DNA from: Selaginella moellendorffii
Taxonomy: Eukaryota; Plantae; Lycopodiophyta
Direction of reading: 5' to 3'
NCBI RefSeq assembly: GCF_000143415.4
Contig: NW_003314314.1
Location: 1,307,771 to 1,371,770, forward strand
DNA length: 64,000 nt
Positions 1 to 37,881 of this stretch are shown here, piece by piece. Made by a program: the position numbers and the translations under genes. The notes beneath the pieces are model-generated. The model was not told the DNA's origin and did no database searches. It saw only the letters and a list, made by a program, of their open reading frames with translations. Numbering within the stretch: the first letter of the stretch is position 1; each line of letters starts with the position of its first letter.

Positions 1-1265
1 GCAGTGCACTCCTCACACTTTGAAAAGCTGGAGTACTTTCCTATACTCACATCCCTGAACCTGTTGCTCCACAATCTACTAAATCTAGATTGGCTCAGCT
101 TCCTGTAGCCATTACTCTGGAGTTCCCGATTCACATCTTCCAATATGGCCCCCTTGGTATACATGGAAGGGAGAACTCGTTGGGTGTCTCGTGTTCCATC
201 TTCCAAGAGGTAGGTTTTATGTGGTTGCTGCTCGCTACATGTCTCGACAAACCTCTTGAAGATTGCCTCTCCATATACAACATGACCCCTAGTTTTGTGC
301 GTACCGTCGTTCCCATGGACTACCTGTTGAACCCTTTGTTCCTCGAACTCAGTTTTGATTCTGTAGAATGTGGTTCAAGGGACTCCATAAATGATTCTCC
401 ATGCCTTCATGCAGACCAAACCCCTCTGGAAGACCATGCCCCCCACCTGATGTTCTGAAGCATCAACAGATGATCGTAATGCCTCATACACAAAATTGCG
501 AGCTGCCTTCCAGGACAATGTCTTGTATCTTGCTCTCTCCTCTTCAATAGCATCCCAATCAGCATGTTGACAGCACCTCCTCTTGCAACAAGCAACTGTC
601 GAGACCATTCGAACCTCCATCGCCATTTTCTGCCTTTTCGGTTCGTTGCTCAGATCCCTTTGGCTGCGCTTTAGGAAGGTGTACTTTCTTTTCCCATGAA
701 GAGATGTTCTATCATCAGTTGTAGTGGTGTTTGATTGTGAATCCTTCACATTCTCAAAAACTAAGTGCCTCAATTTCCACCGCACAATGCTTCCAATAGT
801 CAGACTGTTTTCTTCTGTGTCAACAACCTCTAAAATCGCAACTCCAATATCATCCCAGCCCAATTCTTGATTAGCAACCGCATCTCTTGGATCGACAACT
901 GTGGCTAAGCCCTCAGCTACCACCTCCCCCTCGGGGTTGTTTAGAAACACCTTCGCCTGAATCCATGTAGCATGGTTATTAAGATCCACGGAGGGAACAT
1001 GCGTCGCACTTGCGCTGTCCCCAACATCTGCTTTCTTCTGAAGATTTTTCAAGGCAACAACAACATTTACCCCGACGACCATCTCTCCTCGTTCAATAGC
1101 GACCACATTCCCATCGAAGACAGTCTCTACTGATACAGCAGCATTGCCTTCCCCAAGCCTTTGACAGTGTATAACAAAGTTCCGATCCATAGACACAAGG
1201 GTCCCTTTTGCAACTCTCTTCCCACCATTCAAAATGTAAACCTTTTCCCCAACCCTGAAGGCCAT
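1..1265 (-). pseudogene. Sola-like DDD transposase, 5' part (copy A), premature stop
   Basis: ORF 375-1265 continues into sequence matching the transposase of copy C. CGA in C is TGA here (GVPR becomes GVP*). Confidence 0.8.
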
Positions 1266-4146
1266 TCTGAAAGTGCAAAAAAGAAGTTAAGACCATATAA
1301 AAAATGATTGGAGAATGGCCTAAATCATAACATACCAAACAACCTCAATAGCATGAGGCCACATGCCATTATTCAAATATGCTATTGACACCCACGTGAA
1401 ATTTTGCATTCACAAAATTGGCATGAGGCCTCATGCCATCTTGATATACACACAGCTGCAAGCAAGTAAAAACATACATGACAATACGCCAGCCATGAAA
1501 TTGCAAGGGCCCAAGATGGCATGTGGCCTCATGCCATTTCTAAATGTGGTCCTAAGCCATTCCATGGTGAACATACCAGGAAGCACAAGTGCCGAATATC
1601 AAGAGGAAGCGGTAGCCACACCAAAGACAGTGCCGCTCGCAACACCGCAACTACTCGTAGCGCCGCTCGCACAAACTGCCACTCGCATAAACTGCCGCTC
1701 GCAATGGCGCTCGCAATGCCGCAACCGCTCATAGACGCATAAACCACAGCCCACAATGCCGCTTACACAAGCAGCGCTCACTGCGCTCAGCGGAACCAAG
1801 AACACGGCGCACAAAAATGATAGACCTAAGAATGAGTTCGAGAATTGAAAAATAACACACGCTTGAATGTCACATCAAATCCTCTGACAAACCAGATCTT
1901 ATGACTCCTCTGACAAATTTCAAACTAAGTAGCTTCTAGACTTTGCTGTCGGAGGTTGAACTTTGTCACATCATGTCCTTGCCTCGATCCAGCTGTGCCA
2001 TGTCAGTGATTCGAACTTTGCCATGCCATGTCAGCGATCCGCGCCAAGATTATTCGCTGTGTAAAGGAATAATTATGCTCTGTGTGTACGTCCATTTATG
2101 GCAATATAAGGCCACACGCCATTCAAAGAATAATGCTAGTCGAGCATTTTTTGGTGCATTTTTGGGTTCAAAATTGCATGAGCCCACACGCTATAAAGTT
2201 TACCTGTACCAAAAATAGAAACAGCTTTATTTACTTGGGAATTTAAGTGGTTGAGGCATTTTTAAACTTACAAACACATGCCCTACTTACATTTCTTTGG
2301 TTGCTTAAAATTCAAAAATATTATAAACCTTTCTTTTTGCATTTTCAATGTTTTCAATTATGGTTTTTGATTTTCGCAGGACCAGCCTAGTAATCTATTT
2401 GCATCCCGTCATGTTTATAGCTAGCTTTCGTTTGTCCCCTTCGCTAGCCTGAGATACATCTGCTCGGCATCTGCCTCTTACAGCATTTGCCCAGAAAGGG
2501 CATCTTTCTTCACGCAGCATTTGCCACATGTTTAGGGTTTAGGGTTTAGCAATTCAGTAACTTGATAAACATGCAAATACAGAACTTGATGCAAAATCCT
2601 TTGATATGTCACAATGCCCTTAGGACCATAAACACATTTCAATAGAGAGGGTCTTTTCATTTTATAACTCCTTACGTAGATCTTGGTGAAACCAGAGTTA
2701 GTGAAGTTAGTTTCTTGTGATCCCACATCTGATTGTGATGTCCCTTTGCAGTGTCGATGGAAAGGTCAATGCACACCAAACTGTAAAATCTTGGAGCAAA
2801 ATAATGGTCGGATCTATGGCAAATGCCCCTGAAACATTGTAAGGTTCGTGTGGTCTCATGTGGTGTCCGATCGAGATGCTTCTTTGTAGGGTCATCAAGA
2901 AAGACATTGTATACCATTCTGTAAAATCTAGTTGCGATCTAACGGTTGGATCTCCAGAAAACTCAAAAAAATCTCGCGCGTGTCAGAATATCCTAGGAAT
3001 ATACTCTTATGTGCCCCTGAAAATGGCATGCGGCCCCACGCGATTCAAGAGATAACGCCACATGACGCCGAGAATTTTTTGGTGCATTTTTTGGGTTCAA
3101 AATTGCATGAGCCCACACGCTATAAAGTTTATCTTTCCCAAATAGAGAAAAGTTTATCTGTGTCATGTGAGGTAGTTACAGTCCTTTGTGCTCGGCATCT
3201 GCCTCTTGCAGCATTTGCACTGAAAGGGAATTTTTCTCCATTCAGCATTTGGCCCTGAAAATGGCATGCGCCCACACGCCATTCAAGGAATAACGCCACA
3301 GGACGCTTGGATTTTTGGGTTTAAAATGTTTAGGGTTTTTTGGGTTTTTTCAAAATATTTTGGGTCCAACGTTTTTTGGGTTTCTTTGGTTCAAAATTGC
3401 ATGAGCCCACACGCTATAATATTGATTTGAGAGAAAAATAGAAACAGATAGAATTTCTTTATTTAGCTAAACATCTGCCATTTTTGGAAATACAAGATGC
3501 TTTGGAATATCCAATCATGCATGGTATAAATATAGCGAGGGTATTAAATGATATCCCAATCATGATCTTTCTTTTGGATTTCGCGTGCATGCAGTCCGAG
3601 GAATGATGACGTTGCGGATTTCTTTTGGATTTTACGTGCTTGCATGCGCATGGCAATCCAGAAATTAATGGTGGCGCCCAAGTCCGAGGAATGATGACGT
3701 GGCGGGATTACCAACCATTGTGACATTTCGCGCGTGTGAGGTTAGGTTTTGCATTTTGCTTCGTACTTGCGCTCGCACACTCGCGCTCGCGCTCGCATCA
3801 CACTCGCGCTCCCGCTCGCATCGCGCTCCCACTCGCGATCACGCTGACTTCTCTACAGGTTTCTCGTGTGCATCGGCGTCCACTCGCGCTTGCATCACAC
3901 TCGCGCTCGCATCGCGCTCGTGTGCATCGGCGTCCACTTCAAGACACACCCAGTTTGTAACTTCGCCGCCAACTCCGCCGCCCACTCCGCCACCCACACG
4001 CAGCCCACTTGGCGTCCCGGGAGATTTCAGCGCCACTCTCCAACTGTAAGTGGCAGAGTAGCCTTGCTGCTACGATCCGCTGCACACACAGTGCACATTC
4101 GCCAGCGAGTCCGGCCTCGATTGTCATGGCCTCCATTCGGCTTCAA

Positions 4147-7100
4147 ATGGTAAGTCTTTTAGGCCAAGTAGAAAATGGCATGAGGCCACATGCCATTCAG
4201 TAGCAACATTGGCATGCACCGATTGGGCTCTCGAGTGCAGTCCGGTTACAGATGGCGTGTAGCCTCACGCCATCTTAGGATGCAGCCTCAAGACATCTGA
4301 TGCAGTGGTGAATGGCGTTTGGCCTCACGTTATTTCCAGCTGCTAGCTTTTCATCTGTCAGCTCTAATTGTTGTGCATTTCTGAACAGGCGAGGAATTGC
4401 GTTCTTCTTCCAGCCACTGTCAATGTGGATGCAGAGAAGGGGGAGGAGCTCACCAGTTGGACTTTCGGGATGGAAGGCGAGGATCTGATGCTGTACAACA
4501 CAGATGGTGGGAGAAAAGAATGCATGGGGATCCTCATCCAAGTGACAGACACTCCATGCAGTTCCATGCAAGAATATGGACTGGCACTTGTGGTAGAGAC
4601 AGCATCCGCCCTCAAGATCCACCTTGCACATCCTAGCGGCTTCCCGGAGGGGGGCAGCGGCTATGAGGAATTCCTAGAGGGAGCTAGGGAGAGGTTGTCT
4701 AGGAGGCCCACAATTTCAAAGACGCTGCGGGTCTATGAAGATCACATGGAATCCACAGACCTCACCTACGGCGATGTTCAAAAACTATATTCCAACATTG
4801 AGCCGTTGAGAGTGCCTCCAGTTCGCGAAGCGAAGGGGAAGGGGGTCGATCTGGAAACTACCCCGAAGCTGAAAAGGGTGGTCAAGCTCAAGCCGACGTC
4901 CGACTCTGCTGCTCCAAAAAAGAAGCTACTCGGTGATGCCATTGCCTCGGGTTCGAACACTACACCCACCAAAAAGAAGAGCCGCAAAGAGCAGAAAGAG
5001 CAAGAAGAGGCAGCAAAAATCGTCGCAGATAATAGTACTTGTTACTATTCCAACAAAGTATATACAATCGACGTGAGCCGTATCGACATCCAAAGCAAAT
5101 ACAACCACAGGCTAGTATCTGATGAGTGGTTGGAGAAACTGAAGCAGAAGATGCTGGCAAGTCCAGTAACACCTGACATCGCAGACGTGATCCCCTACTA
5201 CCAAACAATGAAGGGCAAGACGAGGTTTCCAAACTTGATCAACAGGAAGGTGTTGGACGATTAGAACATCCGGTTCTATGCCGTCTCCGGGCAGCATTCT
5301 AGCTTGGCGATGCAAGAGATAGTTCTGGATATTATGGTGGGCGAGGAGGTGAAGAAAGTCTTCAAGACAAGAGTTGTCCGCCTGATAAAAGGCAACTCGC
5401 CCCTCCGATCTATCATATCCATCTCCCACGCGCAGAATGTCAAGCAAGAAACGTGCTACAAATCGGGTCTGCACGAGACATTGGCACGAACACGGAAGCT
5501 CTGAGTTCAACTGAAGAAGCCACAAAAACTAGGACAAGGACGTGCACTAGCAACTAGCGCCTGGCAGGTAAGCCTCGTTGCATGTGGCATAGCATGTGGC
5601 CTCACGCCATTTCCATTGCAGGAATTCTCGAGTCTTCTCTCGAAAACACTGAGGGTCAATGACACACTCAGCATCCATAACATTCTACTCGCGACAAAAG
5701 TTGTTTTTGACAAATGGGTAGATGTGCTAAGGAGGTACCATGACGGGGAGTTGCTAAACTCAATGGGTGTGGAGGACGGCCGGAAGCCCAATGATTTGAA
5801 GCTCAACGCCTTGCGTTTCTCGCGGTCTCTAGACGACGACGACCTTCTGACAGTGGCTAATGCTCTTCTACGTGGTGAGGTAGTCTTCAACAAGACCAAA
5901 ATGACTCCCGGCCATATTGTGACATACGAGGACTTGTGCACGACTCTGAGAGCTCGTGCGCTATTGAAGGATTGGATCTTCGAGCAAGTGGCCGTGGAGA
6001 GGGTGAGCATCGACACCACGCAAGAGATGATGGAAGAGCTGGAGTTGTCAAATGAAGACATCGACGAGTACGTGAAGGGGGCCCCCAAGTTCATCGATCT
6101 GCTGCGGGATGTCACGAAAAGTAAAGCTGAGAAGTTGGATCAGTATCCAAATTTCATTAAGAGGGATGTCGACCGCCGGCTTCAGAAACAGCTCGACCCC
6201 GCAGCAGAGGCCTATCGAGAACCTTACCGGGTATACGTGAGGATCAAAGGTGGAGGAGCATCGTTTCCCGCGGAGATGAGCAGGTCAAGAGCATCTTTTG
6301 TGTGATGGACTTCACAAACGAAGAGATCACTCATGCAGACGAAGTCAGCTCCATCATTGACTTAATGGTGGGACTTGCGGAGGTGGAATCTTCAGTCCAC
6401 TATATGATCTACGACTCCGAATCCTATCACAAGTTCTGGAAGGCCTTGAACGAGGTGAAGGCTCGGTTGAAAGGCAAGGAGATGCGGGAGATCCATGGGA
6501 TAATGGCTAAGAAGAAGATACTGACGAATGTCTGCATCTTCACACTCGCCCTTGTTATTGGTCCTGCAGCAGAGTGGGACTGGAGTGACTTCCCAGCTTC
6601 GTTCGACAAGGCCGATCGAATTGATCTGAGGGAGGTCAATTTACCCGTGTCTAAGGAACTGAAGACGGCTATGGAGCTTTCGAATCCAGAGAAAGCTCCA
6701 GGTGCAGCATGGGAAATGCTCAGCTGGGTCTTCAACGCAATAGCGGGTGACACCAAGGGCAAATGCGTTGTCGAGTACAACTGCGGCGGACTATTCTTTC
6801 GAGCCGCACTACTCAAGGGTGTCCCGTGGGTTGCGGTGACAAACTCCATTGAAGAGGTGACTTCAATGGAGCATATAATTACAGTTGCCAAAGAAAAACA
6901 GTATCTTCTCTGCGAACCTGGTGAGTACGCACTTTAAGTTTAAATGTTATCTCACAAGCTCTGTATGCAGGAGCGTGGCCACCCCCAGATGCTGAAATGG
7001 CGTTAACAGCTACTGATGTTAGGCCGAGCTCACAACCTGCACAAGGTAAGGTCACGTGAGGCCTCACGCCATTTTGATTATAGATTGTTGTGAATATTCA

Positions 7101-9195
7101 GACACGAGGACTGAAAAGCGCACTGGTGGCGCGTCGAAGAAGGACAAACAGACAAGCAATAGGAAAAAAGGAGGTACAAATTATATTTGCAATGGCGTGT
7201 GGTCTCATGCCATTCCTTGCAGGAGACACTTCTTCAAAGGCAAAACAGGCAAGCACCAGCCAAGCTCAAACTGACAGTGGTCATAAAAAGCGAAAGCACG
7301 TTGGACAGTCGTCGGGATCAGAGGCGTTTGATTTGAAAAGGAAGAAGGGCAACGAAAAGGTGATAGGTAATGCCTCGCGGTTATGGCGTGTGTGCTCATG
7401 CCATTCATTGCAGATCAAGGGCTGAGTGAAAGGAGCCAGTCACCACCTCCTGACTCAGATTCCTATGGCGGACTCCCCTTCCCCAATCTCAATGGAGAGG
7501 TACAATGGATGAGGGATGCTTTTCAAGTTAGGGCCACGTTTTTCTCATCTCGTCGTCTTCGAAGGGTGCAAGAACGTGCAGAAACCATGTTAAGACAGTC
7601 GGGTGAGGATACGGTCCTAGGTCAAGCACTGAAACATGCTATGGATGTCTTGTATTTTGAGATGGAGACTCGGCCAGATGATTTTCCCAAGATGGTCCTG
7701 GAAAAACAAGCCATCCAGCCTGAGCAGCCTATGGAAGAAATGCAAGAGGGGGATGAGGAGCCAGAGAAAGATAATGAGCAGGAAGAGCAGAAGGACGAAG
7801 AGGAGGACAAAGAAGAGGAGGACGAAGAAGAGGAGGACGAAGAGGACTTGGATGGTCCTCACAATGGTGACGATCACAATAACGACGACAACGATGATGA
7901 CGACGATGGCCAGCCTGAGGTGGCCAAAGAGCAGCGGAGGAAGGTCATACAAGACAAACCATCAGGTAAATAATAGTACATCCATTCCTAACCTTTTACC
8001 ATTTCTAACATTGTCCATGTAGGTTGCAGAGCAAATGGTAAGTAGAGATTATTCAGTTGAATTAAGATACAAACTCTAGCCTTTAGTGTCGAGGAAGGAT
8101 AGTGCCAAGCAAGGGTCGAAACGTATGTCCAATCCTTCAGAATCAGCAGTGCGCCCAATAGCAGTTGATGGTAAATACAGTATAGTCGATTCAATGTGCT
8201 AATGAGTTTGTTTTTAGTAGCCAGTAGGGAGGATACCATCTCAATCGAAGGGAGATATTTGGACATGCATATGGATCCGCCAGTGGACTCTACTTGCCTG
8301 CAAGAGTCATCAGAGCTGGTGGAGGCTACTATCCATATCAACGCCAAGCAAGCTGACCACGCTCCACTTGATGTTGCCCATACCACTGAGTCAATCTTGT
8401 CCACGTATCCAACTGACGGTGACCAGGCGCCATTGGACCAAGTTGGTCAAAAGAGACAGATTCACATTAATCACACGGGAGAAACTGCGGGATCTAATAA
8501 TGACCATGCGACACTTAAAACAGAGGGCCGGGTTCAATTTGCAATTGGGAGTTTGGACATCCATGATGCGCCACAATGCATTAACGTTGCTACAGATGAT
8601 GCACGATCAGACGCAAGTAATATTACCATTTGACTTTCTCCTAATGCAGGAGGATTGCTTGACTATGGTCCATGTGAGGGGTAGCAAGCCCATCTTCGTC
8701 AAGCCAGAGGCTGTAGTGATGAACCGGACTGCTAGGTCAAGTGAAATCCTCATCATCGATGACTCGCCGATTAAAACTGCAGCGAACACGCATACATATG
8801 CAGTGCACCCCATCTCTTGCAGTATGGAAACTAGGGAGAAGAAACTGTATGTTCTGGGGGACCTTGCAAAACGGCTTGGAGCGATGGTGATAGAGAACCG
8901 GCCAATCCAGGAGGTGGCTGCAGAAATCAACCAAATGGCAGATGGAACGGTATATCAGAAGCCATTTGATCGGACAGACACCAGTCATCATTTATGGCAT
9001 GTATATTGTCTAGCCAAGCACTATCCGCATCTCCATAATCTGCTCAACCGGATGGGTTCTTCGACCACTGAACATGAGCGTGGACGTATTAAAGAAGAGA
9101 TGGCATTACTATTGGGTTTAAATCCTGATAGTGTGGAGAGTGATGAAATTCCAAGATTATTGTATAGGCGTTGGAGGCAAAAAATAACAATCTGA
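4147..9195 (+). pseudogene. Multi-exon cargo gene (copy A): ParB/Srx-like, degenerate MTase-like, acidic linker and FCP1-like phosphatase regions
   Basis: ORFs 4368-5264, 5616-6305, 6302-6937, 7383-7973 and 8368-9195 are linked by GT-AG introns (4150-4388, 5568-5621, 6921-6970, 7046-7101, 7174-7222, 7367-7413). It has stops and deletions relative to copies B and C. Confidence 0.7.
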
Positions 9196-9613
9196 GATGG
9201 CATGTATTTATTTAAAAATGTAACTTATTATGGCATGGGGTTCCATGCCATTGTATTAATATTAAAAGACAATTCTTTGAGAGGATTTGCATTATACTAG
9301 AAGTGTTACAGCATGTTATTGGAAGTCTACGAAGTTGTTTTATTAATAAGGGGAAAGTAAAGATTGAATGGGGACTTGGGCTCCACCTAGACTCGGAGCA
9401 ACTAAGCCAATATTAAAAGGATGGAAAGAAATTGGACGACGATGACAAGGAGAAGAGAGAGGTGAAGCAGTGGCAGGGGGAGGAGAAGTGATTGAGTAGA
9501 CATTTCCTTGTTTAAAATAAAATGGCATGTGCCTCAATGCAGTTGAATTTTGTTATATTTATATACTATATAAAGGTTTGGAAACCTTATTTTACAAGTG
9601 GGATAATGACAAT

Positions 9614-9635
9614 TCCCACTTTAACGAAATAGAGC
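9614..9635. repeat. 22-bp terminal inverted repeat (cargo-gene end, copy A)
   Basis: Exact reverse complement of 20129-20150 and identical to 28117-28138 and 39489-39510. Confidence 0.95.
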
Positions 9636-9784
9636 TTGCTTTTAGTTTACATATTTAGTTTGCCTTTGTTGAGCCCATTCTAAAGAATCCCTCACTAGAT
9701 TCCAAATGTTGAGTCTTTTTGCCATGAATGCCTCCACTGCACGTAACTTTCCATGATACTCGGCCATGCCGACTTCCACAAGAC

Positions 9785-20128: not shown

Positions 20129-20578
20129 GCTCTATTTCGTTAAAGTGGGAATTGTCATTATCCCACTTGTAAAATAAGGTTTCGAAACCTTTATATAGTA
20201 TATAAATATAATAAAATTCAACTGCATTGAGGCACATGCCATTTTATTTTAAACAAGGAAATGTCTACTCAATCACTTCTCCTCCCCCTGCCACTGCTTC
20301 ACCTCTCTCTTCTCCTTGTCATCGTCGTCCAATTTTTTTCCATCCTTTTAATATTGGCTCAGTTGCTCCGAGTCTAGGTGGAGTCCAAGTCCCCATTCAA
20401 TCTTTACTTTCCCCTTATTAATAAAACAACTTCGTAGACTTCCAATAACATGCTGTAACACGCTGTAACACTTCTAGTATAATGCAAATCCTCTCAAAGA
20501 ATTGTCTTTTAATATTAATACAATGGCATGGAACCCCATGCCATAATAAGTTACATTTTTAAATAAATACATGCCATC

Positions 20579-23500
20579 TCAGATTGTTATTTTTTGCCTC
20601 CAACGCCTATACAATAATCTTGGAATTTCATCACTCTCCACACTATCAGGATTTAAACCCAATAGTAATGCCATCTCTTCTCTAATACGTCCACGCTCAT
20701 GTTCAGTGGTCGAAGAACCCATCCGGTTGAGCAGATTATGGAGATGCGGATAGTGCTTGGCTAGACAATATACATGCTATAAATGATGACTGGTGTCTGT
20801 CCGATCAAATGGCTTCTGATATATCGTTCCATCTGCCATTTGGTTGATTTCTGCAGCCACCTCCTGGATTGGCCGGTTCTCTATCACCATCGCTCCAGCC
20901 GTTTTGCAAGGTCCCCCAGAACATACGGTTTCTTCTCCCTAGTTTCCATACTGCAAGAGATGGGGTGCACTGCATATGTTTGCGTGTTCGCTGCAGTTTT
21001 AATCGGCGAGTCATCGATGATGAGGATTTCACTTGACCTAGCAGTCCGGTTCATCACTACAGCCTCTGGCTTGACGAAGATGGGCTTGCTACCCCTCACA
21101 TGGACCATAGTCAAGCAATCCTCCTGCATTAGGAGAAAGTCAAATGGTAATATTACTTGCGTCTGATCGTGCATCATCTGTAGCAACGTTAATGCATTGT
21201 GGCGCATCATGGATGTCCAAACTCCCAATTGCAAATTGAACCCGGCCCTCTGTTTTAAGTGTCGCATGGTCATTATTAGATCCCGCAGTTTCTCCCGTGT
21301 GATTAATGTGAATCTGTCTCTTTTGACCAACTTGCGACCGCAGGCTTTGGAGGGTGCAGTGACATTCGAGGATGAGCCACGCTCATGGGAGAAAAGGACA
21401 CCGTTCAGATCAAAAATGATACAGTACCTTCGCCGTGACTCTGAAATGAAATGCGTCAGCATAAAAAATGGTACAAGTCAATTTTACCATCTACAACATT
21501 AGCGAATGGTGCTCCCGATGGTCGTTGAGAGGGTTTTAGTCGAGGAAACGTGAAGGGCGGAAATACTCTCCTCTGCAATGTGGGGTCAATCGCATCCGAT
21601 GGCGTGTGGGCACATGCCATTTCAGCTGTAGACTCTGGTACAACTGGCTCAACAATGGCATGGGGTGGTTCCGATGGCGTGTGATCACATGCCATTTCAG
21701 CTGGTGCCTCCGTTGGCAAAGTGGACATGACCGAACAGGCAGCAGGGGCGGTGTAGGGAGGTTCCAACGGCGCGTAGTCAGACGATTGGGCACACGTTGA
21801 GTTCGTTGGAAATGAGGATACAACCGGCTCGGCGGCTGGGGCGGCCTCATGCGGGTCCAATGGCGCCTGGTCACCGTCAGTTGGATACGTGGACAAGATT
21901 GACTCAGTGGTATGGGCAGCATCAAGTGGAGCGGATCCATATGCATGTCCAAATATCTCCCTTCGATTGAGATGGTATCCTCCCGTGCTACTAAAAACAA
22001 ACTCATTAGCACATTGAATCGATTATACTGTATTTACCATCAACTGCTATTGAGGAACTAGGACCGATATCACTTGGGCGCACTGCTGATTCTGAAGGAT
22101 TGGACATACGTTTCGACCCTTGCTTGGCACTATCCTTCCTCGACACTAAAGGCTAGAGTTTGTATCTTAATTCAACTGAATAATCTCTACTTACCATTTG
22201 CTCTGCAACCTACATGGACAATGTTAGAAATGGTAAAAGGTTAGGAATGGATGTACTATTATTTACCTGATGGTTTGTCTTGTATGACCTTCCTCCGCTG
22301 CTCTTTGGCCACCTCAGGCTGGCCATCGTCGTCATCATCGTTGTCGTCGTTATTGTGATCGTCACCATTGTGAGGACCATCCAAGTCCTCTTCGTCCTCC
22401 TCTTCTTCGTCCTCCTCTTCTTTGTCCTCCTCTTCGTCCTTCTGCTCTTCCTGCTCATTATCTTTCTCTGGCTCCTCATCCCCCTCCTGCATTTCTTCCA
22501 TAGGCTGCTCAGGCTGGATAGCTTGTTTTTCCAGGACCATCTTGGGAAAATCATCTGGCCGAGTCTCGTTCTCAAAATACAAGACATCCATAGCCTGTTT
22601 TAGTGCGTGACCTAGGACCGTATCCTCACCCGACTGTCTTAACATGGTTTCTGCACGTTCTTGCACCCTTCGAAGACGACGAGATGAGAAAAACGTGGCC
22701 CTGACTTGAAAAGCATCCCTCATCCATTGTACCTCTCCATTGAGATTGGGGAAGGGGAGTCAGCCATAGGAATCTGAGTCAGGAGGTGGTGACTGGCTGC
22801 TTTCACTCAGCCCTTGATCTGCAATGAATGGCATGAGCACACACGCCATAACCGCGAGGCATTACCTATCATCTTTTCATTGCCCTTCTTCTTTTTCGAA
22901 TCAAACGCCTCTGATCCCGACGACTGTCCAACGTGCTTTCGCTTTTTATGACCACTGTCAGTTTGAGCTTGATCTGCAAGAAATGGCATGAGGACCCACG
23001 CAATAACCATGATGCTTTACTTCCTGTCCTTGGAGGCTCTGTCGTGCCTTCCGCATCCTCAGGTGCCTGCTCCTCAATTCCCTTTCGCTTTCGTTTCTTA
23101 TGCGCCCGTTCTACAGAAATAGCATGAGGACATACGCGATAAGCACACAAATGCTTTTACCCTTCCTCCTCTGCCTTGGTCGGTTGTCCATCTCTTTGTC
23201 TACAGCGTCTGAAAGCTGTTTTGCAGGTAGCCTAATTTGAGGTTCACGACGTCTCCTTGGCACTTGAACTGTATATTATTGCATCAACACATGCAACATC
23301 CCATTATATTTTTAAGTTACCTTTCATAAAGTTTTCCATTGGTTCAACTCGTTCCCCTGAAATACAAACTTAGATAAGTGCATGGGGCCATATGTCATGA
23401 TCGTACCTGTTTCGGAACTCTCCTTATCACTCTCCGAGGCCTCCCCCTCCTCCACTGGAGGCACGTTGTTCCGTTCGATTTCCTCGACGCGATCTGCAAG

Positions 23501-24444
23501 AACATTAGTTAATTGCATGGGGCCACACGCCATCAAACCTTCAGGTTCTTGTCGTGAGGTTTGCGCTGCTTGCCCTAGTCTCTTTGGAATTTGAGCTGCA
23601 AGAAGCAATGGCATGAAAATTCACGTATAACAAAAATGATTGGTACCTCTCGTCCGTTGTACTTGGTTGGTGCTTGCCTGTTTTGCCTTTGAAGAAGTGT
23701 CTCTTGCAAGGAATGGCATGAGACCACACGCCATTGCAAATATAATTTGTACCTCCTTTTTTCCTATTGCTTGTCTGTTTGTCCTTCTTCGATGCACCAC
23801 CAGTGCGCTTTTCAGTCCTCGTGTCTGAATATTCACAACGATCTATAATCAAAATGGCGTGAGGCCTCACGTGACCTTACCTTGTGCAGGTTGTGAGCTC
23901 GGCCCAACATGGGTATCTTCAACAGTAGCTGTTAACGCTGTTTCAGCATCTGGGGGTGGCCATGCTCCTGCATACAGAGCTTGTGAGATAACATTTAAAC
24001 TTAAAGTGCGTACTCACCAGGTTCGCAGAGAAGATACTGTTTTTCTTTGGCAACTGTAATTATATGCTCCATTGAAGTCACCTCTTCAATGGAGTTTGTC
24101 ACCGCAACACACGGGACACCCTTGAGTAGTGCAGCTCGAAAGAATAGTCCGCTGCAGTTGTACTCAACAACGCATTTGCCCTTGGAGTCGGAAGCAGGTG
24201 ACCCACCCGCTATTGCGTTGAAGACCCAGCTGAGCATTTCCCATGCTGCACTTGGAGCTTTCTCTGGATTCGAAAGCTCCATAGCCGTCTTCAGTTCCTT
24301 AGGCACGGGTAAATTGACCTCCCTCAGATCAATTCGATCGGCCTTATCGAACGAAGCTGGGAAGTCACTCCAGTCCCACTCTGCTGCAGGACCAATAACA
24401 AGGGCGAGTGTGAAGATGCGGACATTCGTCGGTATCTTCTTCTT
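20579..24444 (-). pseudogene. 3' half of cargo gene (copy B) with the most complete FCP1/NIF HAD phosphatase domain
   Basis: CIIFDLNGVL, LGVWTSM and LIIDDSPIK motifs (ORF 20884-21462). It contains many short introns and exons missing from copy A. Confidence 0.75.
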
Positions 24445-26509
24445 CTTCAAGAGGTTTGTCGAGACATGTAGCGAGCAGCAACCACATAAAACCCGCCTCT
24501 TGGAAAATGGAACTCGAGACACCCAACGAGTTCTCCCTTCCATGTATACAAAGGTTGCCATATTGGAAGATGTGAATCGGGAACTCCAGAATAATGGCTA
24601 TAGGAAGCTGAGCCAATCTAGATTTAGTAGATTGTGGAGCAACAGGTTCAGGGATGTGAGTATAGGAAAGTACTCCTGCTTTTCAAAGTGTGACGAGTGC
24701 ATTGCTATCAAAATGGCTTTGTCGAAGAATTCTTGCATCGCTCAAGAGCGAGAGACGTTGGTTAGAAGGCGGCTCGACCACAACATCGAGCAGAGAAGCT
24801 GCAGGATTGCATATTATCATAACAGGATTCTCTCCATGGAGAGACCTGACTCTTACCTCTGCATCATCCACGACAAAATGGACTAAAAAAAGACGTGCTT
24901 ACCTCGACTCAATCCTGCCCCCAAGGCAATCTCTTCATCCATGCAGCTGCCTGTGTCTCTGTTTGGCATAATCGCTCATGGGCATGGTGCCCAGAACTAT
25001 GGGAACTTCTTTGTACCTCTATGGGGTGGCGGGGGTGCAAACATGATGATTGCGTCCCTAGCAAAACACTTAAGGTCTCTGCAAAGTGCGCAGACTGAGC
25101 TGAACGGCCAACCCTTGTATAAGGCCCTTGTCGATCGAACCCCATACAGGGTTCAGCTGGAGGAGGAGCAAAGGCTTGCAGTATCGCGTGGGGCCCCATG
25201 CCATCCCAGTGAATATGTTGACCGTCAGATTGTAGGGTTATCACGTGAGGCCTCATGCCATTCCGACGAGGCTGGTCGCCCGGTGAATGCACAGCCTCAT
25301 CCAAACGAAGCAGAATCTCAAGGAAGTTCTTGCGGCCGATGTGGCCTTCCACCCCATCTTCTGCTCCAAACAGACAATGCTGGCAGTGAGAACAAAAACA
25401 TGTACGTCTTCGCGTACTTGGCGATGCTTGTTGCCAAAGGCATATTTGAAACGGTTATACTTGGCTTTCTCATGGTTGGGCACACTCATGAAGACGTCGA
25501 TGCCATGTTCAGTCACCTGGCAGAGTCCCTCCGGCGATCCAATGTCCTCACCCTCCCACAACTCTACGATGAATTCCAAAATTGCATCAAAGGCACTGTT
25601 GAAGCTGCACTTGTGACAAAGGTTCCAGACTTTAAGGGGTTTGTAAGAGGCTACATCAGGGACGGATCCGAAACGCTGATTGGCCACTCCAAGCCTCTTC
25701 AGTTTCATTTCAGCATGCGTGACGGTGCTCCAGTGATGAGGTACAAGATGAGAGAATGGGACATAGTGTGGCTGCCAGTGGACGGCATTGAACTCTTCAA
25801 GAGAGATCCCATAACTGGGGAACCTATGATTCCTCAGGGTTCCCCACGGCCGATGCACCCGGATGGACTCAAAGACTAGGAAAGTATAGTGGCCGGGATT
25901 AGACAGCATATTGTCTTCTGGAAGAGGGGGTTGGTGTTTGGTGGAGAATCCTATTTTCAGAGGTGCAAGCCTTTGCTTGAATATTGGGAGAAGATTATAT
26001 CTGCTATCCAAAATGGGCCAGTTGTATATGAAGAATTGGAAGAGTCCTTTTGGCCAGAACCCAGAGCACTATATAGTAGCGGAACAATGTCCTCTGGAAA
26101 TGCAGTGACAGATAACGATGTTAAGGATCACTATTGTGGGCCGAGGAACAAGAAGCCGGATTCAGCATTCAATCCAGTACAGGTCTACAAAGGAATGGTC
26201 GTGCTTGTCAGACCCAGTATTAAAAAACAAATGATATGGGTGGGGCGCTGCATCACTGATGCAGAGGAGGATGCGGAAACTAACTCCTTCAATGTAACTG
26301 TGGAGTGGTTCAAGCCAAGTTCCGGATATACGAAGGATTGCCTAGAAAAGAGATGGGTGCTGAATCCAAGGGATCCCAGCATGAGCATATCGGTGGATAA
26401 TGTTGTGCATGGTTGGATGCGGAAGCAGAGTGCCACCATCACCTTGCCAGACCATGCAAGAGATGCAGCAAGAGCATTCATAACCCGGGTTCAAGGTGAG
26501 ATTCATTAA
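24445..26509 (+). pseudogene. Sola-like DDD transposase core and C-terminus (copy B), two in-frame stops
   Basis: SKCDEC, IIHDKMD, QTDNAGSENKN and FLMVGHTHEDVD motifs lie in one frame across ORFs ending 24886, 25879 and 26509. Confidence 0.85.
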
Positions 26510-28184
26510 TATTCCTTTACTAAGTTTCTAATGTATTTTATTTCAAGGTGAACAATTCGAATCTGAATCAGAGGAGGCGTGATGGCATGTGGCCTTACGC
26601 CATTCCTAGGTGAGATGATACAAATAACAAGTATAAATTCTTAGTTGTTCTAGCAAATCTTACTTAAAGTTCAAGGTGAACAAGCCGAATATGAATTCAT
26701 CGGATTGTTATAACAAATTGCGAGGTGATGGCATGAGGCGATACGCCATTTGAGAGTGGTAGCCATTCCTATATGAGGTGAGTGAAATATTTATTAGAAA
26801 TACCTCATTCAATTGTGCACTTCTAAGTCTTGGTCCACTCAATACTGTTTGCATGTTTCTATTTTAATTCTTTCTCTAAAATGTTATTTAGCATGTGGCT
26901 TCATGCCATTGCTCTCCACAATCATGCATTGAATTTTTCTATCCTTGCATAATACTTCTCTATATATATAGCATGTGCACACATGTGATATGGTTCATTA
27001 GGCCTGATATAGTGTGTGAGGTAAAACAAAGATGATGTGACATATGCATTTACCAATCACATGTGCATAAATCTAATAATATGGCGTGTGGCCCATATTA
27101 ATGGCATATAAACCCATATTGTGGGCTTATATGCTTTATGTACCATCATTCCCTTGCAGTGTGTGTGTTGGTTTCCTTTTATAACACAACGAACTCCATA
27201 TTTTAGGGTGAAGAGCGTTCTCATGGCAAGCACAAAATCTGTAAGTGAGGCAGAAAAGGAGACGGAGAAGGAGATAGGTGAAGATGTAGAATATATAAGT
27301 CTTCCAAACTCCCCGTACTATACTCCAGGTGATCATTTTTCTGAACAAACGGCAACATTAACAACTATTGAGAATGCCCCAGTAACGTCAGAGACAACAA
27401 TTCAAAGCAAAACAACTGACCCGGAGAAGGATGATAGTACCGCTGAGAGTACCAAACAGGAGGTGTCCACTAGCGCTTAGGCTTATAATGGCGTGTGCCC
27501 TCATGCCATTTACTTGATCACCAAATACCTTTTTCCCTTTGCACTAGTATATCTTAATACCGGTCTGAGAAATAGAATGGCATGTGCCCTCAGGCCTTTT
27601 ACTAAATCACCTTTGAAAGAAATGCAAGCCTCTATGTCGTAAAAAAAAGGTCCTAGAGAAATTCCTTAATAATATGAATGTTATTTAGTTTCATGAAAAT
27701 ACACTAAGGGTCAAATGAGTTAAATGACTTCTCCAGACTAGCAATGCCTCTTGCTACACCTTCACAATTAGATTCGTTAGAAAAAGATAATATTGAATAA
27801 TATCTAAATGTTCTCACCATTAAGTTATATGTCTGGCTAATAGGAATGACGTTCATCTTGGAAAGCTCACCACACGCTCAATGAACAAACAAATAGTGTG
27901 TGCGCGCATGCCATCGCTCTTCTTTAGCTTCAGATTCGGCTTGTTCACCTTGACAATGAGATTTATTATACAACCAGATGGACTCAGTCTGGACACAAAG
28001 TCACCGCGCTAGTCACCATGCCCTAGATATGTCTAGCCCCTGGACAAAAAACATATAATTTCACGTCATTTTCAAATACTTGAAAATTTGTACCTAGTCC
28101 CATTTTACTGAATAAATCCCACTTTAACGAAATAGAGCATAGCACCAATAAAAGTCGGACTGAGGAACAGCTCCAATACCAAGT

Positions 28185-29936: not shown

Positions 29937-30139
29937 AGTGGCTAACTCCATTGGTCATTTCCTTGTCAGTGATAGTTGGATGTTGTATGAGTTGTAGTGC
30001 ATTTGCATTAGACAAAGAGGTTATCCTAATTTATTTAAGCTGATGTATTTCTTATAAAGTGTGAACACCAAAAAAAATTTCTAAAGTTGTTTCATTGCCG
30101 GTGGTCTAGAGTAGAGTATGCATCAACAAGGATGTCAAT

Positions 30140-31352: not shown

Positions 31353-34300
31353 CCCTTCTTCCTTTTCGAATCAAACGCCTCTGATCCCGACGACTGTCCA
31401 ACGTGCTTTCGCTTTTTATGACCACTGTCAATTTGAGCTTGGCTGGTGCTTGCCTGTTTTGCCTTTGAAGAAGTGTCTCCTGCAAGGAATGGCATGAGAC
31501 CACACGCCATTGCAAATATAATTTGTACCTCCTTTTTTCCTATTGCTTGTCTGTTTGTCCTTCTTCGACGCGCCACTAGTGCGCTTTTCAGTCCTCATGT
31601 CTGAATATTCACAACAATCTATAATCAAAATGGCGTGAGGCCTCACGTGACCTTACCTTGTGCAGGTTGTGAGCTCGGCCCAACATGGGTATCTTCAACA
31701 GTAGCTATTAACGCCGTTTCAGCATCTGGGGGTGGCCACGCTCCTGCATACAGAGCTTGTGAGATAACATTTAAACTTAAAGTGCGTACTCACCAGGTTT
31801 GCAGAGAAGATACTATTTTTCTTTGGCAACTGTAATTATATGCTCCATTGAAGTCACCTCTTCAATGGAGTTTGTCACCGCAACACACGGGACACTCTTG
31901 AGTAGTGCAGCTCAAAAGAATAGTCCGCCGCAGTTGTACTCGACAACGCATTTGCCCTTGGAGTCGGAAGCAGGTGACCCACCCGCTATTGCGTTGAAGA
32001 CCCAGCTGAGCATTTCCCATGCTGCACCTGGAGCTTTCTCTGGATTCGAAAGCTCCATAGCCGTCTTCAGTTCCTTAGGCACGGGTAAATTGACCTCCCT
32101 CAGATCAATTCGATCGGCCTTGTCGAACGAAGCTGGGAAGTCACTCCAGTCCCACTCTGCTGCAGGACCAATAACAAGGGCGAGTGTGAAGATGCGGACA
32201 TTCGTCGGTATCTTCTTCTTAGCCATTATCCCATGGATCTCCTGCATCTCCTTGCCTTTCAACTGAGCCTTCACCTCGTTCAAGGCCTTCCAGAACTTGT
32301 GATAGGATTCGGAGTCGTAGATCATATAGTGGACTGAAGATTCCACCTCTGCAAGTCCCACCATTAAGTCAATGATGGAGCTGACTTCGTCTGCATGAGT
32401 GATCTCCTCGTTTGTGAAGTCCATCACACAAAAGATGTTCTTGACCTGCTCATCTCCGCGGGAAATGATGCTCCTCCACCTTTGATCCTCATCCGAATTC
32501 ACATATACCCGGTAAGGTTCTCGATAGGCCTCTGCTGCGGGGTCGAGCTGTTTTTGAAGCCGGCGGTCGACATCCCTCTTAATGAAATTTGGATACTGAT
32601 CCAACTTCTCAGCTTTATTTTTTCGTGGCATCCCGCAGCAGATCGATGAACTTGGGGGCCCCCTTCACGTACTCGTCGATGTCTTCATTTGACAACTCCA
32701 GCTCTTCCATCATCTCTTGCGTGGTGTCGACGCTCACCCTCTCCACGGCCACTTGCTCGAGGATCCAATCCTTCAATAGCGCACAAGCTCTCAGAGTCGT
32801 GCACAAGTCCTCGTATGTCACAATATGGCCGGGAGTCATTTTGGTCTTGTTGAAGACTACCTCACCACGTAGAAGAGCATTAGCCACTGTCAGAAGGTCG
32901 TCGTCGTCTAGAGACCGCGAGAAACGCAAGGCGTTGAGCTTCAAATCATTGGGCTTCCGGCCGTCCTCCACACCCATTGAGTTTAGCAACTCCCTGTCAT
33001 GGTACCTCCTTAGCACATCTACCCATTTGTCAAAAACAACTTTTGTCGCGAGTAGAATGTTATGGATGCTGAGTGTGTCATTGACCCCCAGTGTTTTCGA
33101 GAGAAGACTCGAGAATTCCTGCAATGGAAATGGCGTGAAGCCACATGCTATGCCACATGCAACGAGGCTTACCTGCCAGGCGCTAGTTGCTAGTGCACGT
33201 CCTTGTCCTGGTTTTTGTGGCTTCTTCAGTTGAACCCAGAGCTTTCGTGTTCGTGCCAATGTCTCGTGCAGACCCGATTTGTAGCACGTTTCTTGCTTGA
33301 CATTCTGCGCGTGGGAGATGTATATGATAGATCAGAGGGGCGAATTGCCTTTTATCAGGCGGACAACTCTTGTCTTGAAGACTTTCTTCAGCTCCTCGCC
33401 CACCATAATATCCACAACTATCTCTTGCATCGCCAAGCTAGAATGCTGCCCGGAGACGGCATAGAACTGGATGTTCTGATCGTCCAACACCTTCCTCTTG
33501 ATCAAGTTTGGAAACCTCGTCTCGCCCTTCATTGTTCGGTAGTAGGGGATCACGTCTGCGATGTCGGGTGTTACTGGACTTGCCAGCATCTTCTGCTTCA
33601 GTTTCTCCACCCACTCATCAGATACTAGCCTGTGGTTGTATTTGCTTTGGATGTCGATACGGCTCACATCGATTGTATATACTTTGTTGGAATAGTAACA
33701 AGTACTATTATCTGCGACGATTTTTGCTGCCTCTTCTTGCTCTTTCTGCTCTTTGCGGCTCTTCTTTTTGGTGGGTGTAGTGTTCGAACCCGAGGCAATG
33801 GCATCACCAAGTAGCTTCTTTTTTGGAGCAGGAGAGTCGGACGTCGGCTTGAGCTTGACCACCCTTTTCTGCTTCGGGGTAGTTTCCAGATCGACCCCCT
33901 TCCCCTTTGCTTCGCGAACTGGAGGCACTTTCAACGGCTCAATGTTGGAATATAGTTTTTGAACATCGCCGTAGGTGAGGTCCGTGGATTCCATGTGATC
34001 TTCATAGACCCGCAGCGTCTTTGAAATTGTGGGCCTCCTGGACAACCTCTCCCTAGCTCCCTCTAGGAATTCCTCATAGCCGCTGCCCCCCTCCGGGAAG
34101 CCGCTAGGATGTGCAAGGTGGATCTTGAAGGCGGACGCTGTCTCTACCACAAGTGCTAGTCCATATTCTTGCATGGAACTGCATGGAGTGTCTGTCACTT
34201 GGATGAGGATCCCCATGCATTCTTTTCTCCCACCATCTGTGTTGTACAGCCTCAGATCCTTGCCTTCCATCCCGAAAGTCCAACTAGTGAGCTCCTCCCC

Positions 34301-34593
34301 CTTCTCTGCATCCACATTGACAGTGGCTGGAAGAAGAACGCAATTCCTCGCCTGTTCAGAAATGCACAACAATTAGAGCTGACAGATGAAAAGCTAGTAG
34401 CTGGAAATAACGTGAGGCCACACGCCATTCACCACTGCATCAGATGTCTTGAGGCTGCATCCTAAAATGGCGTGAGGCTACACGCCATCTGTAACCGGAC
34501 TGCACTCGAGAGCCCAATCGGTGCATGCCAATGTTGCTACTGAATGGCATGTGGCCTCATGCCATTTTCTACTTGGCCTAAAAGACTTACCAT
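31353..34593 (-). pseudogene. 5' two-thirds of cargo gene (copy C) with ParB-like and MTase-like regions
   Basis: ORFs 33332-34372, 32615-33259 and 31912-32631 match copy A. Frameshift near 32620. Confidence 0.75.
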
Positions 34594-35056
34594 TTGAAGC
34601 CGAATGGAGGCGTGACAATCGAGGCCGGACTCGCTGGCGAATGTGCACTGTGTGTGCAACGGATCGTAGCAGCAAGGCTACTCTGCCACTTACAGTTGGA
34701 GAGTGGCGCTGAAATCTCCCGAGACGCCAAGTGGGCTGCGTGTGGGTGGCGGAGTGGGCAGCGGAGTTGGCGGCGAAGTTACAAATTGGGTGTGTCTTGG
34801 GCCATCTTGGGCCCTTACAATTTCATGGTTAGCATATTGTCATGTATGTTTTTACTTGCCTGCAGCTGTGTGTATATCAAGATGGCATGAGGCCTCATGC
34901 CAATTTTGTGAATGCGAAATTTCACGTGGGTGTCAATAACATGTTTGAATAATGGCATGTGGCCTCATGCTATTGAGGTTGTTTGGTATGTTATGATTTA
35001 GGCCATTCTCCAATCATTTTTTGTATGGTCTTAACTTCTTTTCTGCACTTTCAGAA

Positions 35057-37881
35057 TGGCCTCCACAAGTGCGACGCATGTTCCCTCCGTGGATCTTAAG
35101 AACTGTGCTACATGGATTCAGGCAAAGGTGTTTCTAAACAACCCCGAGGGGGAGGTGGTAGCTAAGGGCTTAGCCACAGTTGTCAATCCAAGAGATGCGG
35201 TTGCTAATCAAGAATTGGGCTGAGATGATATTGGAGTTGCGATTTTAGAGGTTGTTGACACAGAAGAAAACAGTCTGACTATTGGAAGCATTGTGCGGTG
35301 GAAATTGAGGCACTTAGTGTTTGAGAATGTGAAGGATTCACAATCAAACACCACTACAACTGATGATAGAACATCTCTTCATGGGAAAAGAAAGTACACC
35401 TTCCTAAAGCGCAGCCAAAGGGATCTGAGCAACGAACCGAAAAGGCAGAAAATGGCGATGGAGGTTCAAATGGTCTCGACAGTTGCTTGTTGCAAGAGGA
35501 GGTGCTGTCAACATGCTGATTGGGATGCTATTGAAGAGGAGAGAGCAAGATACAAGACATTGTCCTGGAAGGCAGCTCGCAATTTTGTGTATGAGGCGTT
35601 ACGGTCATCTATTGATGCTTCAGAACATCAGGTGGGGGGCATGGTCTTCCAGAGGGGTTTGGTCTGCATGAAGGCATGGAGAATCATTTATGGAGTCCCT
35701 CGAACCACATTCTACAGAATCAAAACTGAGTTCAAGGAACAAAGGGTTCAACAGGCAGTCCATGGGAACGACGGTACGCACAAAACCAGGGGTCATGTTG
35801 TATATGGAGAGGCAATCTTCAAGAGGTTTGTCGAGACATGTAGCGAGCAGCAACCACATAAAACCCGCCTCTTGGAAGATGGATCACGAGACACCCAACG
35901 AGTTCTCCCTTCCATGTATACCAAGGGGGCCATATTGGAAGATGTGAATCGGGAACTCCAGAGTAATGGCTACAGGAAGCTGAGCCAATCTAGATTTAGT
36001 AGATTGTGGAGCAACAGGTTCAGGGATGTGAGTATAGGAAAGTACTCCAGCTTTTCAAAGTGTGACGAGTGCACTGCTATCAAAATGGCTTTGTCGAAGA
36101 ATTCTTGCAGCGCTCAAGAGCGAGAGACGTTGGTTAGAAGGCGGCTCGACCACAACATCGAGCAGAGAAGCTGCAGGACTGCATATTATCATAACAGGAT
36201 TCTCTCCATAGAGAGACCTGACTCTTACCTCTGCATCATCCACGACAAAATGGACCAGAAAAAGACGTGCTTACCTCGACTCAATCCTGCCCCCAAGGCA
36301 ATCTCTTCATCCATGCAGCTGCCTGTGTCTCTGTTTGGCATAATCGCTCATGGGCATGGTGCCCAGAACTATGGGAACTTCTTTGTACCTCTATGGGGTG
36401 GCGGGGGTGCAAACATGATGATTGCGTCCCTAGTAAAACACTTAAGGTCTCTGCAAAGTGCGTAGATTGAGCTGAACGGCCAACCCTTGCATAAGGCCCT
36501 TGTCGATCGAACCCCATACAGGGTTCAGCTGGAGGAGGAGCAAAGGCTTGCAGTATCGCGTGGGGCCCCATGCCATCCCAGTGAATATGTTGGCCGTCAG
36601 ATTGTAGGGTTATCACGTGAGGCCTCATGCCATTCCGACGAGGCTGGTCGCCCGGTGAATGCACAGCCTCATCCAAACGAAGTAGAATCTCAAGGAAGTT
36701 CTTGCGGCCCATGTGGCCTTCCACCCCATCTTCTGCTTCAAACAGACAATGCTGGCAGTGAGAACAAAAACGTGTACGTCTTCACGTACTTGGCAATGCT
36801 TGTTGCCAAAGGCATATTTGAAACGGTTACACTTGGCTTTCTCATGGTTGGGCACACTCATGAAGACGTCGATGCCATGTTCAGTCACCTGGCAGAGTCC
36901 CTCCGGCGATCCAATGTCCTCACCCTCCCACAACTCTACGATGAATTCCAAAATTGCATCAAAGGCACTGTTGAAGCTGCACTTGTGACAGAGGTTCCAG
37001 ACTTTAAGGGGTTTGTAAGAGGCTACATCAGGGACGGATCCGAAACGCTGATTGGCCACTCCAAGCCTCTTCAGTTTCATTTCAGCATGCGTGACGGTGC
37101 TCCAGTGATGAGGTACAAGATGAGAGAATGGGACATAGTGTGGCTGCCAGTGGACGGCATTGAACTCTTCAAGAGAGATCCCATAACTGGGGAACCTATG
37201 ATTCCTCAGGGTTCCCCACGGCCGATGCACCCGGATGGACTCAAAGACCAGGAAAGTATAGTGGCCGGGATTAGACAGCATATTGCCTTCTGGAAGAGGG
37301 GGTTGGTGTTTGGTGGAGAATCCTATTTTCAGAGGTGCAAGCCTTTGCTCGAATATTGGGAGAAGATTATATCTGCTATCCAAAATGGGCCGGTTGTATA
37401 TGAAGAATTGGAAGAGTCCTTTTGGCCAGAACCCAGAGCACCAGATAGTAGCGGAACAATGTCCTCTGGAAATGCAGTGACAGATAACGATGTTGAGGAT
37501 CACTATTGTGGGCCGAAGAACAAGAAGCCGGATTCAGCATTCAATCCAGTACAGGTCTGCAAAGGAATGGTCGTGCTTGTCAGACCCAGTAATAAAAAAC
37601 AAATGATATGGGTGGGGCGTTGCATCACTAATGCAGAGGAGGACGCGGAAACTAACTCCTTCAATGTAATTGTGGAGTGGTTCAAGCCAAGTTCCAGATA
37701 TACGAAGGATTGCCTAGAAAAGAGATGGGTGCTGAATCCAAGGGATCCTAGCATGAGCATATCGGTGGATAATGTTGTGCATGGTTGGATGCGGAAGCAG
37801 AGTGCCACCATCACCTTGCCAGACCATGCAAGAGATGCAGCAAGAGCATTCATAACCCTGGTTCAAGGTGAGATTCATTAA
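35057..37881 (+). pseudogene. Sola-like DDD transposase (copy C), nearly complete
   Basis: Same-frame ORFs 35293-36465 and 36487-37881 are separated by one TAG. CxxC-H motif plus catalytic D (HDKMD), D (TDNA-ENKN) and D (GHTHEDVD). 5' deletion of about 250 bp relative to copy A. Confidence 0.85.

Follow-up and report, generated by a model that had tools for sequence, protein, structure and literature searches.

The window analysed here is a 64-kb stretch of Selaginella moellendorffii (contig NW_003314314.1, positions 1,307,771 to 1,371,770), and all positions in it count from its first letter. It contains three copies, A, B and C, of a DNA transposon bounded by terminal inverted repeats (TIRs), with 94-98% identity between the copies by self-BLAST. 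The element carries a DUF7869 transposase gene and, in divergent orientation, a multi-exon accessory gene whose product is predicted to contain a ParB fold, see Table 1. A 22-bp palindrome is a family-specific site of this transposon, with about 30 sites per element. We consider it reasonably probable that the palindrome is a parS-like site bound by a dimer of the accessory protein.

The 22-bp palindrome and its distribution

The consensus ATGGCRTG-N6-CAYGCCAT was scanned across the window. Allowing two mismatches, there are 44 matches against 0.04 expected, and the maximum in 100 shuffled sequences is 2. The palindrome, which an earlier note had read by eye from the letters of copies A and B, is thus a real feature. 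Thirty of the 32 coordinates cited there lie within 5 bp of a full site, while 2098 and 27082 are half-sites only. Copy C also bears palindromes and was missing from that list. With up to three mismatches there are 54 sites, of which 53 fall within the 25.8 kb of the element copies and a single one within the other 38.2 kb, so that, within the window, the sites are strongly enriched inside the element and, as had been noticed, next to absent from retroelements and host genes. Only 2 of 74 exact half-sites fall outside the element. In a virtual full-length element there are 26 sites, or 31 if the segments present only in copy B are added, in line with the earlier estimate of roughly 30.

The spacing of the arms is fixed. 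When each arm may have two mismatches, a spacer of 6 bp is found 44 times, spacers of 2-5, 7, 8 and 10 bp never, 9 bp once and 11 bp six times. Within the half-site, T7 is invariant (60 of 60) and C5 is kept in 58 of 60, while position 3 accepts any base. The arms had been described as conserved around a more variable centre; the centre is, however, not free, as the half-site runs on into it as W-G-G, with G in 49 and 41 of the 60 half-sites. The whole 22-mer is therefore a dyad.

The flanks had been called unrelated, and this is true for most sites: the 57 sites with up to four mismatches fall into 30 flank groups, although one merger among them seems spurious and two of them may reflect chance similarity. 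Common flanks are, however, found within the sets 2173/3102/3396, 3023/3261 and 22828/22983, and 21599/21674 belong to a 75-bp duplication.

Similarly, the claim that the palindrome is dispersed through the whole element holds for its roughly 30 sites, but their distribution is uneven and avoids the coding exons of the accessory gene. In copy A, all seven sites of this gene are in predicted introns, although the introns make up only 641 of its 5070 bp, and in copy B six of eight are intronic. Nine sites in total lie in 3' regions. Short telomere-like TTTAGGG runs are also seen between the divergent genes (2530-2550 and 3318-3340), and the stretch past the transposase stop (37882-38850) contains short repeated units that have palindromes and GT/AG-like signals and resemble further mini-exons.

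Table 1. Features of the transposon copies in the window. Palindromes per copy are those with up to three mismatches; strand is given where assigned.
Feature	Position	Strand	Remarks
Copy A	1..9635		left end cut by window; self-BLAST, TIR, 17 palindromes
Copy B	20129..28138		both TIRs; internally deleted; 19 palindromes
Copy C	31353..39510		one TIR, left-truncated; lacks A 1521-3939 and A 1013-1258; 17 palindromes
TIR, 22 bp	9614..9635; 20129-20150; 28117-28138; 39489-39510	+ (9614..9635)	termini GCTCT...AGAGC
Transposase 5' part, copy A	1..1265	-	start codon 1265-1263; interrupted by one in-frame stop; Transposase_23 match weak and below cut-off
Transposase gene, copy C	35056..37881	+	DUF7869, PF25273 E 2.6e-39; in-frame stop 36463
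Accessory gene, copy A	4126..9195	+	multi-exon, divergent from transposase; modelled from GT-AG anchors and frame continuity
ParB/Srx-fold domain (predicted)	5040..5440	+	GQHS motif; modelled from copy C ~33285-33700 (-)
Helical region, candidate helix-turn-helix	5622..5760	+	after ParB domain; assigned by eye
N6/N4 methyltransferase-like region	6287..6919	+	Atlas 0.90 to PF01555 clusters
FCP1/NIF-like C-terminal region	20887..21477	-	PF03031 E 5.5e-06, above cut-off; A equivalent ~8440-8820
Eight palindromes between divergent genes	1348..3417		1348, 1418, 1516, 2173, 3023, 3102, 3261, 3396; half-site near 2112
Predicted intron 1	4150..4388	+	three palindromes: 4175, 4252, 4312
Predicted 54-nt intron	5568..5621	+	palindrome 5589; its 18-residue read-through absent from Riccia proteins
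Three predicted mini-introns (56, 49, 47 nt)	7046..7413	+	one palindrome each: 7051, 7192, 7383
Two palindromes 3' of accessory gene	9230..9543		9230, 9522
Two exonic palindromes	21599..21695		in 75-bp duplication, absent from copy A
Nine consecutive predicted mini-introns, copy B (45-56 nt)	22819..23880	-	palindrome with up to 4 mismatches in 8 of 9; ninth a 6-mismatch remnant
Two palindromes within transposase frame	36555..36633		variable insertion between acidic motifs 1 and 2; B: 25183, 25240
Seven palindromes 3' of transposase stop	37954..39286		B: 26582-27914; half-site 38453

Copies, genes and proteins of the element

The TIR is perfect over 22 bp, is the same in all four ends present and shows no likeness to the palindrome. 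The ends of copy B are backed by contigs of run X3, in which matching stops at 20129 and 28138. Copy A together with the part of C that lies beyond A gives an element length of about 13 kb, or about 14 kb with the B-only segments. From one DNA run, 39,109 contigs map along copy A, which fits a multi-copy family. Both ends are present in copy B only; its flanks, AAAA and ATAG, differ, homologous sites contain about 200 bp of target that are absent here, and no target site duplication (TSD) is readable. An internal deletion at 24444, with TCTTC microhomology, fuses the broken accessory and transposase genes of this copy. One run X3 contig links 20168 to 28097 across 7928 bp, which hints at a very short non-autonomous derivative but may be a TIR artefact. 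Among the differences listed between the window copies and run X3, the window mostly has T or A and the run C or G, a pattern expected from deamination of methylated cytosines.

The transposase contains the acidic motifs HDKMD, QTDNA..ENKN and GHTHEDVD, and its relatives with names are mostly from the liverworts Riccia and Calypogeia. We read this DUF7869 protein as a putative Sola-like DDD transposase. Sola elements are bounded by TIRs, as is the element here, and have a 4-bp TSD. For the term DUF7869 itself no paper was found in the open-access literature, and the portions available of PMC5751038, PMC4455052, PMC6431247, PMC9587614 and PMC3985635 contain no Sola motifs for comparison. A Replitron/HUH reading of the H-T-H motif was rejected, as the element terminates in inverted repeats and conserved acidic residues surround the motif. 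Copy C lacks 246 bp, in frame, of the sequence for the transposase N-terminus (1013-1258), and the same part is absent from the protein P0012, which is 96% identical where it matches.

The accessory gene of copy A is broken by stops, a frameshift and deletions. In copy B, removal of ten predicted GT-AG introns gives an open frame of 395 codons, against 27 stops in the unspliced sequence, and the lengths of 11 exons in a row are divisible by three; the intron boundaries were picked by eye and one acceptor position was taken from copy A. For the last three modelled introns no open frame was obtained. Two runs guessed to be RNA contain no splice joints and several of their contigs cross predicted introns unspliced, although these runs may be DNA. 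A 694-bp block with six of the nine consecutive mini-introns predicted in copy B is skipped in the commoner run X3 contig (joint depth 129, compared to about 5 for the contig that holds the block), showing that sites are gained or lost in blocks.

When the model of the ParB-like region was searched with Foldseek, all six matches at E<=0.001 were Noc or ParB (E 2e-4 to 9e-4), and VIA aligned it to PadC (Z 9.8, root-mean-square deviation 3.0, 99 aligned), KorB (9.1, 2.5, 94) and pNOB8 ParB (8.3, 2.9, 100), the matches spanning residues ~10-149. A sequence search of the PDB with a ParB-family profile gave two matches at E<=10, neither credible. A full-length Riccia model has a mean predicted local distance difference test (pLDDT) score of 47.5; its methylase (pLDDT <50) and NIF parts are unusable, nothing matches at E<=0.001 with Foldseek (top row Noc, E 0.12) and the top VIA row, PadC with Z 6.1, stands among helical noise. 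The top Atlas feature matches of the ParB-like region are fungal DUF3723 proteins (0.95), a family linked to Starship elements, while Pfam DUF3723 itself does not match the region.

A HMMER search with the residues around the GQHS motif gave 19 relatives, and among the ten looked up the named ones are liverworts. In four long Riccia homologues, a ParB-like region is followed by a helical one, an N6/N4-methylase-like one (below the PF01555 cut-off, E 0.005-0.02), an acidic one and then FCP1/NIF, where NIF is above cut-off in two, below it in one and absent from one. This order matches the accessory protein of the window. Furthermore, the Riccia homologue R1sor_000722 is two locus tags from the DUF7869 gene R1sor_000724. 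A search for the accessory open reading frame (ORF) among longer proteins matched none of 6250 candidates, and no relatives of either protein were found in the viral contigs searched. No DPPY-type catalytic motif is visible by eye in the methylase-like region, and the phosphatase motif of the FCP1/NIF-like region reads FDLNG instead of DxD (compared by eye). With the arginine motif of ParB replaced by GQHS as well, enzyme activities are doubtful. Both the methylase-like and the phosphatase-like part have probably degenerated and could serve as scaffolds.

Beside the transposon copies, the window contains three copies of a retroelement-associated segment (9785-11468, 28184-29937 and 44535-46252; 79-84% alike) with a GAGATGGA(C/G)-type tandem array, an RNase H-like ORF at 17156-17800, and pyruvate kinase-like frames on the minus strand at 57770-59116, split by one in-frame stop.

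Related transposase loci and known systems

Related transposases were followed in 85 loci (80 of 227 plus 5 of 5), which form 61 sequence clusters. The motif of the window is rare there, with a single occurrence in the 447,515 bp of these loci. At least four palindromes independent of their flanks are found in seven of the 85 loci (L004, L014, L053, L070, L081, L082 and L084), and L001, L003, L005 and L006 have another common palindrome, with 2-4 sites each and one in L006. Repeats with common flanks were collapsed in these counts, since tandem repeats otherwise inflated the result (palindromes in 13 and mirror patterns in 12 of 85 loci). L084 has about 30 palindromes, in arrays on both sides. 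In L082, a 27-bp palindrome is repeated about 13 times with ~50-bp spacing at 4500-5320, and shortly after it follows an intact transposase frame of 965 codons.

L084 comes from a record labelled as a Nitrospirales metagenome-assembled genome. Its region 2900-13100 contains split eukaryote-like genes, the DUF7869 transposase and a divergent ParB-like ORF, and also TTGAAATTTCAA arrays and adjacent Helitron-like ORFs. Judged from its sequence, this is probably a misbinned eukaryotic contig, and L081 and L082 look likewise misbinned. In L052, whose host we guess to be protist-like, an ORF at 3339-5027 that had appeared ParB-like by eye was rejected (hhalign probability 0.1%). The regions 7121-8125 and 2627-3245 of the same locus contain an upstream ORF that is C5 cytosine methyltransferase-like by eye, with no Pfam match, and five GGCTGG-N6-CCAGCC-type palindromes.

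As in bacterial ParB/parS, Noc/NBS and KorB/operator systems, a predicted ParB/Srx N-terminal fold and many inverted-repeat sites occur on the same replicon, and Noc and KorB use such dispersed sites for occlusion or gene control. Unlike the bacterial systems, the element has GQHS in place of the arginine motif, extra domains and a eukaryotic gene that is predicted to be spliced, and it lacks a ParA gene (no Pfam match to a ParA ATPase among the element ORFs scanned). The 22-bp site is also unlike bacterial parS.

Among eukaryotes, ParB-HTH methylase fusions occur in chlorophytes and chytrids, according to the available part of PMC4738411. A close parallel is Sola1-1_Ec32 of Ectocarpus, whose available description (PMC12477816) places an accessory gene, ParB-like and N4/N6 methyltransferase, opposite a transposase closest to the Sola1-1_PPa entry and proposes that the protein binds and modifies its own element. 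Both are large DNA transposons with one accessory gene on the opposite strand within the TIRs, encoding a ParB-like N-terminal domain. However, the Ectocarpus element is described as 21.5 kb long with AACCG termini, a 282-bp imperfect TIR and a 4-bp TSD, compared to ~13-14 kb, a 22-bp TIR and GCTCT termini here. Further differences are that the Selaginella element encodes an additional FCP1/NIF-like region, that no catalytic motif is visible in its methylase-like part and that its 22-bp site is defined; the string 'palindrom' has no occurrences in the main text of PMC12477816. In Bostrychia, the PAG3 protein of Plavaka elements has a ParB-like N-terminal domain, and inverted repeats in the element are proposed as its binding sites in the part available of bioRxiv 10.1101/2025.02.11.637652. 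That element, as described there, has an EnSpm/Plavaka transposase, a 2OG-oxygenase effector and tandem arrays beside the gene, while here we have a DUF7869 transposase, a land plant and sites throughout the element, one per predicted intron.

In terms of site distribution, there is a resemblance to VANDAL elements. VANC motifs are dense in non-coding DNA and introns and have spread by tandem duplication (PMC5735166, as far as available), and as here they are family-specific, differ between families and occur beside an accessory gene. They are, however, 8-9 bp long, non-palindromic and co-oriented, and go with DUF1985/DUF287 and a Mutator transposase; neither DUF1985 nor DUF287 was found by Pfam in the window ORFs or the Riccia homologues. 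The TnpA motifs of Spm are terminal, according to the portion available of bioRxiv 10.64898/2026.08.24.746577, in contrast to the element-wide sites here. For VANC and TnpA, these sources report binding and demethylation as demonstrated. The element is neither ParABS nor VANDAL, and it may work like a hybrid of both.

Candidate binders and possible function

The earlier note had proposed a parS-like site for a dimeric protein encoded by the element. This is the best-supported explanation, and with the accessory protein as the binder we hold it with moderate confidence, given the modelled ParB/Srx fold, the fixed spacer and the independence of the half-sites, but the transposase is still a candidate binder.

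Several results weigh against the accessory protein or qualify the case for it. The CTP-binding arginine motif of ParB is GxxRxxA, but at this position 28 of 28 aligned rows have GQHS/T/LxxA, so CTP-clamp behaviour is not implied. Helices are predicted where a helix-turn-helix would be expected, but the structural alignments do not confirm it. Divergence between copies is slightly lower at the sites (4 of 396 bases) than in DNA beyond 200 bp (109 of 5786), but the counts are small. CpG is less depleted in the element (observed-to-expected ratio 0.62-0.72) than outside it (0.35-0.48), a contrast to which the age of the element and its share of coding sequence may contribute. These two are the only hints in the sequence that copies of the family are kept active, and both are weak and confounded. 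In the related loci the control patterns are not clean: with flanks collapsed, mirror patterns reach 5, complement patterns 3 and direct repeats 8 of the 85 loci, compared to 7 for palindromes, although inspection shows most of the control matches to be simple repeats or the palindromes themselves. No palindrome family was found in the long loci L019-L021, L023, L027, L054, L078 and L079, the longest plant-like ones. ParB profiles matched none of the 85 loci, and the divergent ORF of L084 resembles the ParB family weakly (hhalign probability 13%, E 0.002). Finally, in the part available of bioRxiv 10.64898/2026.08.24.746577, transposases alone are reported to be able to activate cognate copies.

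The palindrome could instead be bound by the transposase, or its N-terminal domains, either as an internal transposition enhancer or for self-activation, with the ParB-like gene as a passenger. Palindromes follow the transposase family at loci with no detected ParB-like gene. One such case is L082, where there are 15 palindromes, only one other upstream ORF of at least 110 aa and no match to the ParB profiles, and because of this locus the transposase stays a candidate. The clusters at both flanks of L084 resemble subterminal repeats, and the same preprint, in its available part, reports transposases and TnpA to be sequence-specific activators. However, most related loci are too short for a second gene to show, the TIR of the Selaginella element is unlike the palindrome, ParB-fold proteins are known to bind inverted repeats, and the sites here are mostly internal, many of them in introns of the accessory gene, rather than subterminal. 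We therefore regard the transposase as an unlikely binder, though the most serious competitor. The palindrome could also act as a structure, that is, as a pre-mRNA hairpin (a splicing aid or a source of small RNA) or a DNA cruciform. Many sites are indeed in predicted introns of 45-56 nt, often 8-12 nt from the acceptor, and in several of the intronic ones position 6 shows G-T on the sense strand, which RNA tolerates. The arms do not covary, however: across the 30 flank groups, 36 deviations affect one arm and only one is compensated, with 4 both-arm differences and 169 positions unchanged, and pairing between the arms of a site does not exceed that of halves combined at random (p 0.82). At position 6, A-C is as common as G-T (A-T 9, A-C 9, G-T 8, G-C 3, A-G 1). 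The strict 6-bp spacer, the sites between genes and an Rfam scan of the window with 0 matches also speak against a structure, which we find very improbable. As the spacer is fixed and the deviations are uncompensated, a dimer that reads the bases of two half-sites fits better than a hairpin or cruciform.

Equally improbable is the recruitment of a host transcription factor, although the CATG/CACG and GCCAT cores of the half-site resemble RY, G-box and YY1 motifs. Against this, exact half-sites are nearly confined to the element and related elements carry unrelated palindromes, so a co-evolving element protein fits better than a conserved host factor. A marginally smaller chance still is given to a neutral origin, where one palindrome without function was spread by local duplications. 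Some sites do have common flanks and neighbours are often 57-90 bp apart. However, ten intronic sites are 68% alike over the 22-mer while their flanks, at 28% and 33%, are at background identity, and neither the 30 flank groups across the element nor the separate palindrome families of other elements would be expected from such a process.

If the accessory protein is the binder, the sites could have multiplied through small duplications, exon-intron units included, and selection would have kept them while the flanks decayed. Sites in introns would cover the whole gene body and leave the protein undisturbed. By analogy to VANC and TnpA, the accessory protein would load at the dense sites and coat the copies of its own family, and this dense binding would keep them transcribable against host methylation. 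That the binding serves anti-silencing has, on this analogy, about even chances, and the remainder goes to autoregulation of the divergent promoter or to help in transposition.

More tentatively, it can be speculated that a self-recognition module of the ParB/parS type is ancient and widespread in DUF7869 transposons of land plants and other eukaryotes. The palindrome of each family would co-evolve with the DNA-binding helix, exon-intron duplication would have seeded one site per intron, and the protein would load, spread and shield the element from silencing. We consider this whole scenario doubtful, but if it is true, VANC would be joined by a second anti-silencing system, one derived from bacteria, and the elements would offer a natural panel of protein-site pairs. 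Self-binding by ParB-like accessory proteins has already been published as a hypothesis for algal transposons, as far as the available parts of those papers go. What is new here is the land-plant case, the defined site, its dispersal through introns and the family-specific sites; in the open-access literature, no earlier account of such a site or system from a land plant was found.

The locus makes the idea testable, since the candidate site is precisely defined at 22 bp, the profile of its half-sites and its positions along the whole element are given, and relatives carry other sites. Some of the introns may be retained because they carry a DNA motif. If the interpretation is correct, such elements would also be a source of long-site DNA binders. 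Non-seed plants would then have a prokaryote-derived self-marking of transposons, which bears on the resistance of transposable elements to silencing.

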